Shown: one piece after another, positions 46,347-52,229 of the stretch
How positions within the stretch are numbered: position 1 is the first letter of the stretch
Layout: every line of letters begins with the position of its first letter
Origin: Thermoproteota archaeon
GTDB lineage: Archaea > Thermoproteota > Methanomethylicia > Methanomethylicales > Methanomethylicaceae
Reading direction: 5' to 3'
Assembly: GCA_016882195.1 (NCBI GenBank)
Contig: VGLU01000004.1
Coordinates: 5,572 to 69,571 of the forward strand
DNA: 64,000 bases
The notes under the pieces: model-generated
What the model was told of the DNA's origin: nothing
What the model saw: only the letters and a program-made list of their open reading frames with translations
Databases searched by the model: none
Made by a program: the position numbers and the translations under genes

Positions 46347-47246
46347 TCACCGCATGCTGCCGATACTCACAGCTATTGCCTTTAGCCGCTCTATCCGCTT
46401 CCAGGTTGAAGGGTGTGTGGAGAACATCTCGAGGATGGCATCTCCCCTGAATGGGTTGACTATCCAAAGTGGGCTCGTAGAGGGGTTGACGTTGAGGGGC
46501 TTGCCACTCCGTACTGAGCGCTCGATCTTCTCAAGGGCGCTCGCCAAGGAGAGGGGCTTTCTGCTTAGCATTGCACCCTCCCTGTCGGCCTCGTACTCCC
46601 TCCCCCTCGATATCGCTGTCTGGACCAGAAATGCGGCAAGCGGGGCCAGAAAGCTGAGTATCAGCGCCAGTGCACCGGCGTTCCTGTCCCTGCCACTTGA
46701 ACCGCCCATAAAAATGCTGAACCTCCCCATGAGGGCCAAGTAGCTTATCGCCCCAGCTATGGTGGCAACCACCGATGCGATCAGGACATCCCTATGCTTT
46801 ACGTGAGACACCTCGTGGCTGAGAACCGCCTCAAGCTCGTTTTCATTGACGGTGCTCATAAGGCCGGTTGTAACCGCCACTACGGAGTTGTTTGGCCCCC
46901 TGCCTGTGGCGAAGGCGTTCGGTACGGGGGTCTTGATCACGGCAACCTTGGGCTTTGGAAGGCCGGCGCTCGCGGCGATGGTGGAGACGATCCTGTGCAG
47001 CGCAGGCTGCTCGGTCTCGCTCACCACCTTCGCGTGCGACATGGATAGCACGATCTTGTCGCTGTAGAGGTAGGAGATCAGGTTGAGCAACGCGGCGATG
47101 ATTAACGCGCCCAATGCGATCAGCTCTGGTGCACCAAAGAGGAAGCCGATGACGTATCCAAGGACTACGAAGATGGCCGTCAGTATGGTCATCATCAGTG
47201 CCAGTCGCAGCATTTTCCCCATCTCAAAGACGAGATAGCCATGCAA
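46347..47246 (-). CDS. htpX: HtpX-like M48 zinc metalloprotease
   Basis: Four TM helices and HEVSHVKHRD (HExxH). Confidence 0.85.
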   Translation of the reverse strand: MHGYLVFEMGKMLRLALMMTILTAIFVVLGYVIGFLFGAPELIALGALIIAALLNLISYLYSDKIVLSMSHAKVVSETEQPALHRIVSTIAASAGLPKPKVAVIKTPVPNAFATGRGPNNSVVAVTTGLMSTVNENELEAVLSHEVSHVKHRDVLIASVVATIAGAISYLALMGRFSIFMGGSSGRDRNAGALALILSFLAPLAAFLVQTAISRGREYEADREGAMLSRKPLSLASALEKIERSVRSGKPLNVNPSTSPLWIVNPFRGDAILEMFSTHPSTWKRIERLKAIAVSIGSMR

Positions 47247-47274: not shown

Positions 47275-49086
47275 CTAGTCCTCTCCCGTGGCGGCCTCGG
47301 TGTAGTAGTACTCGTTTATCTCCTTCTGGTACCTGTCGAGCCAAGAGTCCCTCTTGTTGACCCTCGGCCTGCCGGTGTCGGAGTCCCTCCTGAAGGTTAT
47401 GCCCACCCCCTTGAGGAACTGGTTCATACCCTTTCTGAGACCCACTGGCGGGTTAGCCGCGCCCGACCTTCCTGGTTCCCCGGAGAAGACCATTACGCTG
47501 TCTGCGAGGAGGTCATTGGCGACGATGTCGTGCTCCACGACAAAGGCGGCCGAGCCCCGCTTCTCTGCAACCCTTCGGATCGATCTTGAGACGGCGAGCC
47601 TGTGTTCGACGTCGAGGTGTGCGGTCGGCTCGTCGAGGAGGTAAAGCCCTACGTCCCTGGAGAGGCAGACCGCGACCGCTGTCCTCTGCAGCTCCCCTCC
47701 GCTAAGGGAGCTAGTCTCTCGGTCGAGCAGGGGGGTTATGTCAAGGGGACCATAGATCTCCTCATTGAGCCAAGGATCGTTCAGCAGGGGGGGGTTTATG
47801 GAGGCAAGGATCTCCCGAAGGGTCTTGTCGGTGTTTGGAACCACATACTGGGGCTTGTAGCTGACCTTGATCCCGTTCTCATTTACGGAGCCCACCGTGG
47901 GTTCGATGATGCCCGCTATGACCTTGACGAAGGTTGTCTTCCCTGTGCCATTAGCCCCGACTATTCCCACGACCTCCCCCCTGTGGATATCTCCGGACTT
48001 TGCATCGAGCGTGAAGTCGCCCAGCACCTTCTTGAAATCGGCCCACCTCAAGAGGACGTCCTCTGACCTCCACTCGCTGGGCGCCGGGGAGAGGTGGAAC
48101 CTGATGGGGTAGGGTCTGAAGCGGACGTTTTCGTCGGGGATGTACCCGTTTATGTATATGTTGATACCCACGCGAACCCCGTGGGGCTTGGAGACGATGC
48201 CGTAGACACCGGCCTTGCCGTAGAAGAGGCACACCTGATTGGATATATAGTCAAGGACGGCCAGATCGTGCTCTGCCACCAGGACGTACTTGGATGCCTT
48301 CGCCAGTTGCTGCACCAGAGCGGCCATCCTCATCCTCTGGTAGACGTCGAGGTAGCTGGAGGGCTCATCAAAGATGTAGACATCGGCATCCCTTAGGGCA
48401 ACGGCAGCGATGGCCATCCTCTGCAGCTCCCCTCCGCTAAGGGAGTGGATGTCCTTCTTCCAGATTGTCTTCAGTGATAGCGTGGAGGCGACCTCGTCGA
48501 GGACCCCCCTCTCATCGATCTTGGAGAGGATCTCGCCGGCAGTTCCCGTAATCCTCTTTGGCGCCTCGTCTATGTACTGGGGCTTGGTGACCACTCGGAG
48601 CCTCTTCTCCGAGAGCTTCTTGAAGTATTCGTGGAGCTCAGAGCCCCTGAAGAAGCGCAGGAGGGACTTCCAGTCGGGCGGAGCGTCATAGAGCCCGAGG
48701 TTCGGCTTGATCTCCCCGCCGAGTATCTTGAGGGAGGTGGACTTCCCAGCCCCGTTCGGCCCGAGCAGACCCACCACCATGCCCTCCCTCGGGACGGGGA
48801 GGCGGTAGAGCTTGAAGGTGTTGGGCCCGTATCGGTGTACGGAGAGCTCCTCGAGCTCATCCGGCAGGTTTACGACCTTGAGGGCACCGTAGGGGCACTT
48901 CTTGACGCATATGCCACACCCCGTGCAGAGGTTCTCCGCCACCAACGGACGATCCATCGATGTGTCGTATTTTATGGCCTCGGCGCCCGTTCTCACGATG
49001 GGACAGAAACGTATGCACTCCCTGCCACAGTTGCCAGGTTTACAGAAGTCCGTATCTAGTACTACTACTCGCACCAACACGATCAC
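47275..49086 (-). CDS. ABCE1 (RNase L inhibitor / ribosome recycling factor)
   Basis: N-terminal Fe-S region (CKPGNCGRECIRFCP, CTGCGICVKKCP) followed by twin ABC ATPase domains. Confidence 0.9.
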   Translation of the reverse strand: MIVLVRVVVLDTDFCKPGNCGRECIRFCPIVRTGAEAIKYDTSMDRPLVAENLCTGCGICVKKCPYGALKVVNLPDELEELSVHRYGPNTFKLYRLPVPREGMVVGLLGPNGAGKSTSLKILGGEIKPNLGLYDAPPDWKSLLRFFRGSELHEYFKKLSEKRLRVVTKPQYIDEAPKRITGTAGEILSKIDERGVLDEVASTLSLKTIWKKDIHSLSGGELQRMAIAAVALRDADVYIFDEPSSYLDVYQRMRMAALVQQLAKASKYVLVAEHDLAVLDYISNQVCLFYGKAGVYGIVSKPHGVRVGINIYINGYIPDENVRFRPYPIRFHLSPAPSEWRSEDVLLRWADFKKVLGDFTLDAKSGDIHRGEVVGIVGANGTGKTTFVKVIAGIIEPTVGSVNENGIKVSYKPQYVVPNTDKTLREILASINPPLLNDPWLNEEIYGPLDITPLLDRETSSLSGGELQRTAVAVCLSRDVGLYLLDEPTAHLDVEHRLAVSRSIRRVAEKRGSAAFVVEHDIVANDLLADSVMVFSGEPGRSGAANPPVGLRKGMNQFLKGVGITFRRDSDTGRPRVNKRDSWLDRYQKEINEYYYTEAATGED

Positions 49087-49101: not shown

Positions 49102-49410
49102 CTACTCGAATTCGGTCTCTTCGGAGGGACCCTCTTCCTCTTCACCTTCCTCTTGGAAGTTCTCCAGAAAGACCTCGTAGTAATCTGCCATGAGCTCGCG
49201 TTCCTCTTCCTTTCTCTTCTTCCCCTTCGCCAAGGGCTCTTCGACGACCAGCGTCTTCCTACGCTTTTTTTCGTCAACTGTTTGCACGATCTTATAGCCC
49301 TTTGATTCGCTGGCGGGCTTGTCAAAACCACATGATCTGCAGATGAGATGAATTTTATCAGTCTTCTTCGAGGGTATCAGAAGTTTACCACATTTGGGAC
49401 AGAATTCCAA
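49102..49410 (-). CDS. TFS/RpoM N-terminal zinc-ribbon paralog with Lys-rich and acidic tail (lacks C-terminal TFIIS-type ribbon)
   Basis: MEFCPKCGKLLIP...LICRSCGF (TTG start gives the canonical N-terminus), then KKRRK...EEGEEEEGPSEETEFE. No second Cys4 ribbon. Confidence 0.55.
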   Translation of the reverse strand: MEFCPKCGKLLIPSKKTDKIHLICRSCGFDKPASESKGYKIVQTVDEKKRRKTLVVEEPLAKGKKRKEEERELMADYYEVFLENFQEEGEEEEGPSEETEFE

Positions 49411-49450
49411 ACAACGCCCCCCAATAGATAAAGATGAGTAGGCTCACCAT

Positions 49451-49557
49451 TCCTCCTCTTCCTCGAATTCCTCCTCTTCCTCTGGCCACTCCTCCTCTTC
49501 CTCTGGCCACTCCTCCTCTTCCTCTGTCCAGTCCTCCTCAAAATCCTCCTCTTGTCC
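49451..49557. repeat. tandem ~21-nt repeats (TCCTCCTCTTCCTCTGGCCAC x2 plus degenerate flanking copies)
   Basis: Direct repeats in the 237-nt spacer between the TFS-like gene and yrdC. In the minus frame of the TFS-like gene they encode EEEEEWP repeats; in another frame QRKRRSG repeats. Confidence 0.6.
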
Positions 49558-49647
49558 ATGATAAAGCACTTTAAAGATCCCCCAGAGACGCAATCGGATT
49601 TGGGGAGCGTTGGGATATTTAAGTCTACCGATTGTATCATATAATGG

Positions 49648-50325
49648 ATGCCGGTGAACTGGATGAGGGTGAGGGTAAGTCCTAACGATCATGAGTGGAT
49701 ACGCGAGATCGCCGAGGTCGTGAGGGCAGGTGGGGTTATAGTCTATCCCACGGACACGGTTTATGGTATAGGCGGCGACCCGTTCAATGTGGCAACGGTG
49801 AGGAGGGTGCTTGAGATAAAGAGGAGGGGGGAGAGGCAGATGCCAGTCCTTGTCTCCGGAGAGGATAAGGCGAGGTTGGTGGTGGAGGTTGACGCCACGG
49901 CCCTCTCGCTTATGGAGACTTTCTGGCCCGGGGCTCTGACGATCGTGCTCAAGAAGAGGACCGAGGTACCGAGCGAACTTACTCTTGGCGGGGGGAAGCT
50001 CGGGGTCAGGATGCCCAACCACGAACTGGCCCTAAGGATCATTGAGGCGTGCGGGGGGGTGCTGATAGGAACCAGCGCGAATATCTCAGGCAACCCGCCA
50101 GCAAGGAGCGTGGAAGAGCTGGATAGCAGGGTGGAGGGGAGCGCGGATGTAGTGGTCGACGGAGGAGAGGCGACGTTAGGGGTCGCCTCGACCGTTGTTG
50201 AGGTTGGCCCCCCAGAGGAGGATAGACCGGCAAAGGTGATCGCGCCCAATGTCAGGGTTCTTAGGGAGGGGGCCATCGGCGCTGATGTTATTAGAGCTAA
50301 GCTGTTAGAGAGGCATGGAGGGTGA
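49648..50325 (+). CDS. L-threonylcarbamoyladenylate synthase (YrdC/Sua5 family, short form)
   Basis: VIVYPTDTVYGIGGDP...LLIGTSANISG motifs. Confidence 0.8.
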   Translation: MPVNWMRVRVSPNDHEWIREIAEVVRAGGVIVYPTDTVYGIGGDPFNVATVRRVLEIKRRGERQMPVLVSGEDKARLVVEVDATALSLMETFWPGALTIVLKKRTEVPSELTLGGGKLGVRMPNHELALRIIEACGGVLIGTSANISGNPPARSVEELDSRVEGSADVVVDGGEATLGVASTVVEVGPPEEDRPAKVIAPNVRVLREGAIGADVIRAKLLERHGG

Positions 50326-50864
50326 GGCGGGTGCAAGGCTTTAACCTGATAGTGACCACGCAGAGGGGCAATGAGAAAAACTGCGTCAAGGAGGTCTTGA
50401 TGCTGGTAGATGAGGTCGGCGGTCCAGAGACGAGGCTAAAGAGGACGAGGTTCCCCGGGTTGCTCGCTGGTACCGTGAAGGGAGATCCGGTGGATCTTCT
50501 GAGGAGGATAAGACCGCTGATCGAGGAGGACCCGTGGGATTTGAGGTTCGCACAGAAGCTGGTTCCCGTACAGAAGAACATTGCGGCGGACATAATGAGT
50601 CTAAAGGGGGCTGTGGGAGGGCTTGCACCCATGATACCGGCCGGTGCCAGCTTCAAGATAGTGGTGAACAAGAGGGGGTCGGATCTTAGGACTGGTGAGA
50701 TAATCAGAGAGGCGGCATCAACGATCGAGAGGAGGGTGGACTTGGAAACTCCGGACAAGATCGTACAGATAGAGATCATCGACGATGTTGCCGGGATCTC
50801 ACTGATCGCAGGCGACGACATAATATCGGTGACAAAACTGCAGGAGAGGGCCATGGAGGGCTAG
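50322..50864 (+). CDS. THUMP-domain protein (Tan1-like)
   Basis: NLIVTTQRGNEKNCVKEV N-terminus; 4-nt overlap with yrdC. Confidence 0.5.
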   Translation: MRRVQGFNLIVTTQRGNEKNCVKEVLMLVDEVGGPETRLKRTRFPGLLAGTVKGDPVDLLRRIRPLIEEDPWDLRFAQKLVPVQKNIAADIMSLKGAVGGLAPMIPAGASFKIVVNKRGSDLRTGEIIREAASTIERRVDLETPDKIVQIEIIDDVAGISLIAGDDIISVTKLQERAMEG

Positions 50865-50911: not shown

Positions 50912-52229
50912 GTGGAGCTATACTCAGAAAGAGATGACGCCATTCAAATGAGCCATCCCTGGAGGACAAGGGGGGAGAAGAGGACAATAGCCGTAGAGTA
51001 CCAGCCGAGCGAGGAGATCCTGAGTTATCTCACTGACATGAGGGATGCGCTGAGGATGGCCCTCGTATACGCATATGTCATGGCAAGGGAGGACGACAGC
51101 AGGCTCCCAGGCCCTATAGCATTGAGGAGGAGGTTCAGGGAATGGTTCTACCCCCGATATGGCTATGCCAGGCACCACATCAGCCCCCTATGCAGAAATG
51201 CGGTGGCTTTGCTCAGGTCCTACAAGAAGAAGCATAAGAGGCTTGAGATACCTGAAGTTAAGAGGCTCGCAATGAGGATAGATGCAGAACTATTAAAGAG
51301 AGAGCAGGGAAATGATGGTTCAGTATCCGTCAGGATAACACTTCAACCATTCAAGTATGAACATATCACGTTTACCCCGAGGCACAAGAGGTGGGAGGAG
51401 TACAATAAAGGAAGGGCATCCGAGCTTCTGATCACAGATAGGAGGCTATACATAACCTTCGTTACCAACGGTGGGAAGAAGGAAACCCCTTGGTAGCAGG
51501 TTCGTTGCCTCAGACCTCAACTTCAACACAATAGACTCGACCGTGGCATCAAAGGAAGGTGAAACAGTCAAGCTCCGGCAGGCGAGGACAGAGCCTATTG
51601 GCAGAATCGCAAGGATACAGAACGACTTCTCAAGAAGGAGAAGAAGGATACAATTACATATAAAGAACCCGAAGAAGAGAGCGAAGAAGCTCAAAGAGAC
51701 GAGGGGGAGGCAGAGGAACAGGATAAGGGACGCTCTCCAAAAGCTCTCAGCTGAACAGGTGAGAGAGAATCCTGGCGCATCATTCGTCTTCGAGAGGCTG
51801 ACCAGGATAAGGGAGAACGATAATGCAAAGAGCAAGAAGCTTCGAACATACTTGAACAGATGGCCATACCGGATGTACCAGTCAATGGTGGAGTACAAGT
51901 CCACCTTTAGGACCGTATACGTGAGCCCAGGAGGGACCTCATCGAGGTGTCCCGTATGTGGTGGTAAGGTAAGGCACCCAGCCTGGGCTGTGAGCAGGTG
52001 CGAGAAATGCGGCGCAGACTACGGCAGGGACAGGCTTTCCTCGCTGGAGATACTCCTCCGTGGTATGCGCCTGTGCGGCCAACCGTTTGCCGTGAGTGCG
52101 GATGCCTCCTGGCGGCTTATGAGGGATGAGTACCTGTACGCTCCTGCCGTGCCTGACGGCTGGAGGGCAGGATGGACCGAGGCTGCCAACGCTCCGAATG
52201 GGAATGTATATGAAAATATACATTCCTAG
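50912..52229 (+). pseudogene. tnpB: TnpB-like gene (third subfamily) split by a frameshift near 51470-51500
   Basis: N-terminal half 50912-51496 and C-terminal half 51471-52229 (RuvC-like core plus SRCPVCGG...CEKCGADYGRDRLSSLEIL zinc finger) lie in different frames. Confidence 0.6.

Follow-up and report, generated by a model that had tools for sequence, protein, structure and literature searches.

A Glu/Trp micro-protein gene beside the TFS2-type gene and ABCE1 in a Thermoproteota archaeon and its relatives

Tandem 21-nt repeats and the micro-protein gene

The window analysed here is a stretch of 64,000 nucleotides (nt) from contig VGLU01000004.1 of a Thermoproteota archaeon, and all coordinates are positions within it. 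On its minus strand, a conserved TATA box and a short leader containing a Shine-Dalgarno sequence precede three co-directional genes: one of 41 codons for a Glu/Trp micro-protein, then, after a 33-nt spacer, one for a zinc-ribbon protein of the TFS2 type, and finally that for ABCE1 (Table 1). An earlier sequence-only reading of this DNA had placed the tandem 21-nt repeats found upstream of the TFS2-type gene in a promoter region shared with the divergent yrdC gene. They lie instead downstream of the TATA box and the Shine-Dalgarno sequence, inside the open reading frame (ORF) at 49444-49569, and are the coding body, in the acidic frame, of a separate and conserved micro-protein gene. The comparison covers an orthologous set of 25 loci from GTDB species genomes, in each of which the 300 nt upstream of the TFS2 start were read. 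Taken jointly, the existence of a separate coding micro-ORF, the TFS2 membership of the protein encoded next to it and the gene order are held with high confidence.

An acidic-frame ORF ending in a Trp codon and a stop is present in all 25 genome loci, 26-37 nt before TFS2, and its product follows the consensus M-x3-5-EEDFEEDW(T/S)-(E/D)5-6-WP-(E/D)5-6-WP-(E/D)4-5-F-(E/D)4-W. The aligned start codon is ATG in the orthologs, possibly TTG in Methanosuratincola, and the window has GTG where its closest relatives have ATG. Pairwise differences in the acidic frame amount to 0.094, 0.086 and 0.559 at codon positions 1, 2 and 3, respectively, and the differing codon pairs comprise 3393 synonymous changes, 2739 Asp/Glu exchanges and 1530 others; the TGG codons for Trp are invariant across the 25 loci, and the Pro codons draw on all four synonyms. 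With the differences clustered at codon position 3 and the Trp codons fixed, the acidic frame is the coding one. Tandem Repeats Finder resolves the repeat into 4.6 copies (88 % matches, score 130), in line with the roughly four noted before. The number of units varies, with one Trp-Pro unit in M. petrocarbonis and three in locus L022, as does their length (7 to 9 codons). These changes between lineages involve whole codons throughout and the peptide is strongly conserved, so that the repeats are not of the kind, absent or variable without coding conservation, that had been envisaged as speaking against their significance.

The micro-protein of the window has about 26 acidic residues among its 41, with Asp and Glu nearly throughout from residue 7, and aromatic residues recurring every 6-7 positions; all micro-ORFs found encode a C-terminal Trp. 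The peptide of the window is free of Lys and Arg and therefore cannot be detected by trypsin-based proteomics. The stop codon varies among the window and the 25 loci (TAA in 14, TGA in 9, TAG in 3), and so does the frame of the micro-ORF relative to TFS2 (0 in 9, 1 in 5, 2 in 12), which rules out read-through into TFS2. The single in-frame TGA that had been reported between the repeats and the TFS-like gene does exist, at 49444-49446 and not at 49441-49443, and in the window the repeats do share the frame of that gene; this is a coincidence, given that the orthologs occupy any of the three frames. Likewise, the proposed check for read-through or selenocysteine elements revealed no conserved in-frame UGA. 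Of the acidic and RKRR-encoding frames described in the same reading, both are present and only the acidic one is conserved.

Public annotations mostly omit the micro-ORF. Among those that include it, entries P0216-P0219 have over-long N-termini of 66-86 amino acids that run through the promoter. In locus L012 the basic frame and TFS2 are merely continuous by chance, and the 152-residue protein P0010 from this locus, in which the out-of-frame basic repeat reading is joined onto TFS2, is a gene-calling artefact. Four micro-proteins tested against Pfam gave no match at E up to 1, and the repeat region gave none in Rfam. A profile search among the 8000 candidates sharing most words with the micro-protein returned eight matches, unnamed or 'hypothetical', and no fusion to a larger protein; the three matches with an organism name all come from metagenome-assembled genomes (MAGs) of Methanomethylicia. 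Two other identities of the repeats were considered and rejected. A non-coding, purine-rich or Shine-Dalgarno-like repeat RNA does not agree with variation at codon position 3 or with the persistence of the ORF in an AT-rich genome, and the codon-position pattern also speaks against a coding basic RKRR frame or a frameshift fusion, an idea prompted by P0010 and by the GGGGGG preceding the TTG start of TFS2.

The signals around the micro-ORF are equally regular. All of 27 loci share a TTAAATA box whose 3' end precedes the micro-ORF start by 40-48 nt (by 46 nt in the window), and in all of them a Shine-Dalgarno-like purine motif, GGAGG in 19 cases and GGGGG in 4, is located 7-11 nt 5' of that start. 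The spacer between micro-ORF and TFS2 is reduced to 9 nt in L035 and 4 nt in L036, and in L047 the micro-ORF stop overlaps the TFS2 ATG by 7 nt (ATGGTAG). TFS2 itself starts with TTG or GTG in 23 of the 25 close orthologs. The tight spacing, the stop/start overlap of L047 and these weak start codons together suggest translational coupling between the two genes.

At the end of the micro-ORF, the last acidic codons can pair with a pyrimidine tract right after the stop to form a hairpin of 5-10 bp, with the Trp and stop codons in its loop and a T-rich tract after it (seen in the window, L004-L011, L015-L019 and L022-L025). Some arm pairs, for example GAAGAAGA:TCTTCTTC and GAAGAGGA:TCCTCTTC, hint at co-variation. 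The feature is weak, and its version in the window is weak as well: it exceeds background at p<0.05 in 13 of 27 loci, with p 0.14 in the window, and a mechanical scan of the region would turn up about 0.9 such sites by chance. A conserved hairpin across the stop codon was thus not retained other than as a weak observation.

The TATA box of the window is quasi-palindromic (ATATTTAAG/CTTAAATAT) and, on the other strand, precedes the yrdC ATG (49648) by 24 nt, a distance at which the yrdC mRNA would be leaderless. One TATA box may drive both divergent units, yrdC on one side and micro-ORF, TFS2 and ABCE1 on the other.

Table 1. Features of the micro-protein-TFS2-ABCE1 locus and its flanks (window positions)
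Feature	Position	Strand	Remarks
TATA box CTTAAATAT	49615..49623	-	TTAAATA kept in 27/27 loci; putative promoter role
Shine-Dalgarno-like GGGGG	49579..49583	-	9 nt 5' of micro-ORF start
Glu/Trp micro-protein gene, 41 codons, GTG start, TGA stop 49444-49446	49444..49569	-	product MLYHGQEEDFEEDWTEEEEEWPEEEEEWPEEEEEFEEEEEW
21-nt tandem repeat, 4.6 copies, coding for EEEEEWP heptads	49447..49539	-	Tandem Repeats Finder
Terminator-like hairpin GGTGAG-CCTA-CTCATC across Trp and stop codons, then T-rich TTTATCTATT	49423..49448	-	mechanical scan
33-nt spacer, micro-ORF stop to TFS2 start; Shine-Dalgarno-like GGGGGG at 49417-49422	49411..49443	-	
TFS2-type gene, 102 amino acids, TTG start	49102..49410	-	Pfam PF02150, TIGR01384 (partial), AlphaFold2 (AF2), hhalign
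ABCE1 (RLI) gene	47275..49086	-	Pfam Fer4_RLI and two ABC_tran domains
M48-family peptidase gene, next after ABCE1	46347..47246	-	
yrdC/Sua5-family gene, divergent	49648..50325	+	Pfam PF01300
THUMP-domain gene, after yrdC	50322..50864	+	Pfam PF02926

The 102-residue TFS2-type protein

The product of the TTG-started gene (MEFCPKCGKLLIPSKKTDKIHLICRSCGFDKPASESKGYKIVQTVDEKKRRKTLVVEEPLAKGKKRKEEERELMADYYEVFLENFQEEGEEEEGPSEETEFE) consists of a Cys4 zinc ribbon (residues 1-35), a Lys/Arg-rich linker (36-64), a helix (65-88) and an acidic tail ending in EFE, so that the TFS-type N-terminus, the Lys-rich stretch and the acidic tail recognized in the sequence-only reading are all present. Residues 1-35 match the Pfam family Zn_ribbon_RPB9 (PF02150; E 1.5e-9, 38 bits, cut-off 25.2), and the ribbon residues Cys4, Cys7, Cys24 and Cys27 are conserved among close homologs. 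These are the only four Cys of the whole protein, and its alignment with the archaeal TFS model TIGR01384 (TFS_arch) covers model positions 1-62 of 101 only (41.9 bits, below the cut-off of 64.75). A C-terminal ribbon and a catalytic Asp-Glu loop are absent, as had been stated. The protein is an electrostatic dipole: as read from the sequence, residues 1-67 carry about +19/-8 charges and residues 68-102 about +1/-19. An amphipathic helix of the type EEREL.ADYYEVFLE is conserved, and the C-terminal motif EEERELMADYYEVFLENFQEE is kept among close homologs.

The AF2 model shows the ribbon strands and helix 65-88, with a mean predicted local distance difference test score (pLDDT) of about 81 for residues 71-80; the linker and the acidic tail are modelled with low confidence (mean pLDDT below about 57). 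Its best Foldseek matches are the N-ribbons of Rpb9, C11 and A12, with root-mean-square deviations of about 1-2 Å over 31-41 residues, and the best PDB chains by sequence are Rpb9 N-ribbons as well (E 3e-5).

All 29 close homologs are about 100 amino acids long and have no second ribbon; none is a full-length TFS, which upholds the view of a paralog with the N-ribbon alone and argues against a truncation artefact. Those with an organism name all come from MAGs of Methanomethylicia (Verstraetearchaeota). A whole-library profile search yielded 135 proteins, of which about 100 have 80-100 residues, a single ribbon and an end-to-end match; they include proteins of Sulfolobales, Ignisphaera, 'Thermoprotei' and Heimdallarchaeia. 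Profile-profile alignment by hhalign of the window family with a Sulfolobales set (a 99-residue protein of S. acidocaldarius together with Metallosphaera and Acidianus proteins) gave a probability of 99.6 % and E 1.3e-23 over 88 columns, the C-terminal helix included. The S. acidocaldarius protein fits the published description of TFS2, its equation with Saci_1587 being one of description and not of accession. By these sequence comparisons, the 102-residue protein is a member of the TFS2 family, which has been described before.

Without a C-ribbon, a TFS2-type protein cannot reach the active site of RNA polymerase (RNAP) in the manner of TFS1. The role of RNAP-binding regulator or inhibitor raised in the sequence-only reading is plausible for it by ribbon homology. 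No canonical TFS was found within the 64-kb window, and cluster look-ups for a TFS1 of Methanomethylicia gave only Asgard proteins. Other assignments were rejected: a canonical TFS/TFIIS cleavage factor, for which the ribbon with the Asp-Glu hairpin is absent and the TIGR01384 score falls below cut-off; an RNAP inhibitor of the TFS4 type, as there is no C-ribbon to bear the Lys-tipped hairpin and the score with model NF047723, 24.2 bits, is below the cut-off of 120; and the elongation factor Elf1 (NF011482, E 0.0056, 16.6 bits, cut-off 109).

A second single-ribbon family of 82-87 residues, with the pattern MEFCPKCG...KKKKKK..EREYE.EPPEYYEELYE, is encoded in L073, L080, L082, L084, L085, L088, L094 and L100. 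Its N-ribbon is the same and is accompanied by a run of Lys residues and a short acidic tail rich in Tyr.

Distribution of the micro-ORF and linkage of TFS2 to ABCE1

Glu/Trp micro-ORFs ending in Trp and a stop adjoin TFS2 in at least nine TFS2 lineages. Besides the loci of Methanomethylicaceae and Methanosuratincola (L001-L025, L040-L044), they are found in L030 (MKYLMFEEEEWEEEFEEEEEWLEEEEWEEEEEWEEEEEEW), in L035, L058 and L059 (MRPEEEWEEEWEEEEEEWEEEWEEEWEEEW, of the form MRPEEEWEEEW...EEEW, 9 nt before the TFS2 ATG), in L036 (MKLLFEEEEWEEELEEWEPEGEWSEEEWEEELEEEW, at a distance of 4 nt from the TFS2 ATG), whose genome is AT-rich, and in L046, L047 and L048. Four loci, L049, L051, L052 and L055, have the micro-ORF in divergent orientation, on the strand opposite to TFS2 (for example MLFYEEEWWEEEELELEEELEEEEEWWEEEEEW), and in L049, L052 and L055 a Shine-Dalgarno-like sequence precedes it, as read by eye rather than by systematic scan. 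These opposite-strand copies indicate that the micro-ORF is an independent gene and not a cis-acting leader. Common to all are a few hydrophobic or basic residues after Met, Glu runs, a Trp every 4-7 residues and a terminal Trp, with Lys and Arg nearly absent. In 45 metagenome loci encoding a TFS with a second ribbon, and in 8 loci of the second single-ribbon family, the same scan detected no micro-ORF. The locus is present in two cultured or enriched organisms with complete genomes, strain LWZ-6 of Methanosuratincola petrocarbonis (L020) and strain LCB70 of M. verstraetei (L016).

ABCE1 starts 15 nt past the TFS2 stop in the window, where the two genes are probably co-transcribed, and lies directly downstream of TFS2 in 25 of 25 genome loci. 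The pairing recurs in L030, L035-L037, L040-L046, L048-L050, L052-L055 and L057-L059, several of which have unrelated upstream flanks. Where the gap between the genes widens to 150-260 nt, ABCE1 has a TATA-like box of its own. TFS2 occurs without adjacent ABCE1 in Sulfolobales, in the Thermoprotei locus L026, in Heimdallarchaeia and in L047. It lies between the genes for S7 and EF-1alpha in L039 and near those for S19e, L39e and L31e in L038. Neither the micro-protein gene nor the TFS2-ABCE1 linkage was found described in the literature and family libraries searched, and no literature was found on expression in Methanosuratincola or on a link between TFS2 and ABCE1.

The TFS2-ABCE1 gap of seven distant loci contains the motif CCGTCACCAnTCATCATC (plus-strand positions 2847 in L046, 2830 in L048, 2744 in L049, 2763 in L052, 2830 in L054, 2875 in L055 and 2821 in L057). 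Read on the opposite strand, it consists of GATGATGA, a C box, followed by GTGGTGACGG, and it looks like a C/D-box small RNA with a conserved guide; Rfam gave sub-threshold matches only, to sR28/sR30 (L054 2798-2850, E about 0.01). The window, with its gap of only 15 nt, does not contain the motif. Two further RNA genes were noticed upstream of TFS2, in one distant lineage a 5S rRNA gene directly upstream (L054 2279-2397) and in another the gene for the archaeal signal recognition particle RNA, about 1.8 kb away (L057 434-719).

On the ABCE1 side, the M48 peptidase gene follows on the same strand in the window and in L030, L040 and L042, and the co-directional string may extend to four genes with its inclusion. 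On the other side, synteny through yrdC and the THUMP-domain gene is kept in 24 of 25 genome loci, the upstream DNA of L025 being too short to judge. Beside the THUMP-domain gene, two overlapping ORFs of 194 and 252 amino acids occupy 50912-52229 (+); the second has a Cas12f1-like TNB (TnpB) domain (E 4e-8), and the pair looks like a frameshift-split element of the TnpB/IS200-605 type.

A candidate TFS2 partner and its known counterparts

The explanation that best unites the anatomy of the locus with a micro-protein working alongside TFS2 has, as a whole, about an even chance of being right. Its central element, that the micro-protein is a trans-acting partner of TFS2, is put forward more tentatively, at somewhat less than even. 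Judged from its composition, the micro-protein is very likely an intrinsically disordered polyanion. Most probably it would bind the strongly basic N-terminal half of TFS2, made up of the ribbon and the KRRK/KGKKRK linker, or else the same basic surface that TFS2 targets; the acidic runs would supply charge and the Trp and Phe side chains would serve as anchors. It would thereby act as a nucleic-acid mimic or chaperone and set the amount of TFS2 that is free for its target, which by ribbon homology would be the lobe/jaw of RNAP, with the active site out of reach. Translational coupling would then fix the stoichiometry of the two proteins.

Several points weigh against this proposal. There are 17 TFS2-type loci without a nearby micro-ORF, including the Thermoprotei locus L026, those of Heimdallarchaeia and that of S. 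acidocaldarius, so that the micro-protein is not obligatory for TFS2, unless these genomes encode it at another site. By eye, the presence of the micro-ORF does not co-vary with the basic linker of TFS2, the linkers being alike with and without it. Binding of TFS2 to RNAP was not found demonstrated in the literature searched. Finally, the linkage to ABCE1 and ribosomal-protein genes fits a role on the side of translation equally well.

Two alternatives, both unlikely in our view, deserve discussion. The first is that the micro-ORF encodes a leader peptide acting in cis. N-terminal poly-acidic stretches are known to abort translation in bacteria and eukaryotes, an effect that the MgtL leader exploits and that ribosome-bound twin-ABC ATPases counteract (PMC11162784, PMC11282234, PMC9718836, PMC12673854). 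By analogy, the early Glu/Asp runs of the micro-ORF could destabilise the ribosome, or ribosomes terminating at the Trp-stop could reinitiate at the weak TTG/GTG start, such that translation of TFS2 and ABCE1 would report recycling capacity, with feedback from ABCE1. The near-exclusive Asp/Glu content after residue 6 speaks for such a mechanism. So do the short distance to TFS2 (26-37, 9 or 4 nt, or a 7-nt overlap), the TTG or GTG start in 23 of 25 close orthologs, the hairpin and T-rich tract that about half of the loci have around the stop codon, and the presence of ABCE1, the ribosome splitter, within the same gene string. However, the opposite-strand micro-ORFs of L049, L051, L052 and L055 cannot act in cis on TFS2 or ABCE1; L047 has micro-ORF and TFS2 with no ABCE1 downstream; and several lineages have TFS2 followed by ABCE1 without a micro-ORF, ABCE1 then having its own TATA-like sequence. 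Moreover, destabilisation of the ribosome requires neither an invariant terminal Trp nor recurring Trp positions, and the intrinsic effect is not known from archaea.

The second alternative, to which a comparably small probability is attached, is that micro-protein and TFS2 act with ABCE1 or the ribosome instead of RNAP, for example as an adaptor or regulator of ABCE1. C-terminal Trp motifs direct iron-sulphur (Fe-S) clients, and Lto1, the adaptor of Rli1/ABCE1, to the cluster-insertion machinery of eukaryotes; an acidic tail with Trp at its end is reminiscent of these, and the terminal Trp is invariant in all micro-ORFs found. The position of ABCE1 next after TFS2 in every one of the 25 genome loci, the persistence of this pairing in distant loci, even with unrelated upstream flanks, and the occurrence of TFS2 among ribosomal-protein and EF-1alpha genes in L038 and L039 all accord with such a role. 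Against this, only one domain can be recognised, a ribbon of the Rpb9/TFS type, and the partners known for such ribbons are RNA polymerases. The neighbourhood is also non-discriminating, given that archaeal RNAP subunit genes, too, lie among ribosomal-protein genes, and TFS2 does without adjacent ABCE1 in Sulfolobales, L026, Heimdallarchaeia and L047. Moreover, archaea are not known to have the Fe-S targeting complex of eukaryotes, so that any link to Fe-S delivery would be tentative. There is a correspondingly slim chance that TFS2 and the micro-protein form a two-part module serving the ABCE1/ribosome system, or bridging it to RNAP. If so, a protein with an Rpb9-type ribbon would have been co-opted for ribosome recycling, for the maturation of ABCE1 or for the coupling of transcription to translation, and the acidic, Trp-terminated chain would be a docking or regulatory element.

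The possibility that the repeats are non-coding promoter elements, a TGA read-through extension or the source of a frameshift from the RKRR frame, to which the shared frame with its single TGA in the window and the basic N-terminal extension of one database protein (P0010) lend some appeal, is highly improbable in the face of the variable relative frame and three stop codons among orthologs, a codon-position pattern that fits the acidic frame only, the micro-ORF's own Shine-Dalgarno sequence and start codon, its opposite-strand location in four loci, and the lack of any Rfam match to the region.

What this locus contributes is the micro-protein gene and the TFS2-ABCE1 linkage, the TFS2 family itself being known. 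A micro-protein gene beside TFS2 in many lineages represents a candidate TFS2 partner that is directly testable. TFS2 is a conserved and apparently essential factor, and the locus supplies a possible lead on what it works with; in view of the recurrent linkage to ABCE1, one may ask whether the site of action of TFS2 is transcription, translation or the interface of the two.

Polyanionic or acidic-aromatic binders are well known from other systems, such as prothymosin-alpha with histone H1, DNA mimics, the acidic Trp motif of eIF3j, and the AA-boxes of eIF5 and eIF2B-epsilon with the K-boxes of eIF2-beta. The micro-protein resembles them, by analogy only, in its strong negative charge, its interspersed aromatic anchors and the Lys/Arg-rich partner that would be expected for it; it shares no sequence homology with any of them.

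As a short ORF that is acidic from its first codons and lies upstream of other genes, the micro-ORF is also reminiscent of acidic leaders of the MgtL type (PMC11282234, PMC11162784). It differs from these in its greater length, its conserved Trp positions and invariant terminal Trp, and its location on the opposite strand in four loci.

As regards the 102-residue protein, its N-terminal ribbon is homologous to those of TFS1/TFIIS, Rpb9, A12.2 and C11. Unlike cleavage factors of the TFS1/TFIIS type, it has neither the second ribbon nor the acidic active-site hairpin, and therefore cannot promote cleavage of the transcript in the same way. TFS4, an inhibitor of RNAP in Sulfolobales (PMC5715097; PDB 7oqy chain Y), is likewise a TFS paralog without cleavage activity but possesses the C-terminal ribbon that the 102-residue protein lacks.

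The closest counterpart is the TFS2 of Sulfolobales (Sso0605, Saci_1587, SiRe_1402), for which Fouqueau et al. 2017 (PMC5715097) reported the absence of a C-terminal ribbon, a Glu-rich predicted helix and conservation across Crenarchaeota. In S. islandicus tfs2 could not be deleted (PMC6249222), and in S. acidocaldarius the level of TFS2 protein rises upon heat shock (PMC10653856). The protein of the window shares with it a length of about 100 residues, the Cys4 N-ribbon without a C-ribbon, a Glu-rich helical C-terminal region and, by hhalign, homology over the full length, including the ExEREEYYxE(V/I)xLE helix, although identity is only about 35 %. The genes are set in different surroundings: that of S. 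acidocaldarius follows an Lrp/AsnC-family gene and has neither a micro-ORF nor ABCE1 as a neighbour, whereas that of the window has both.

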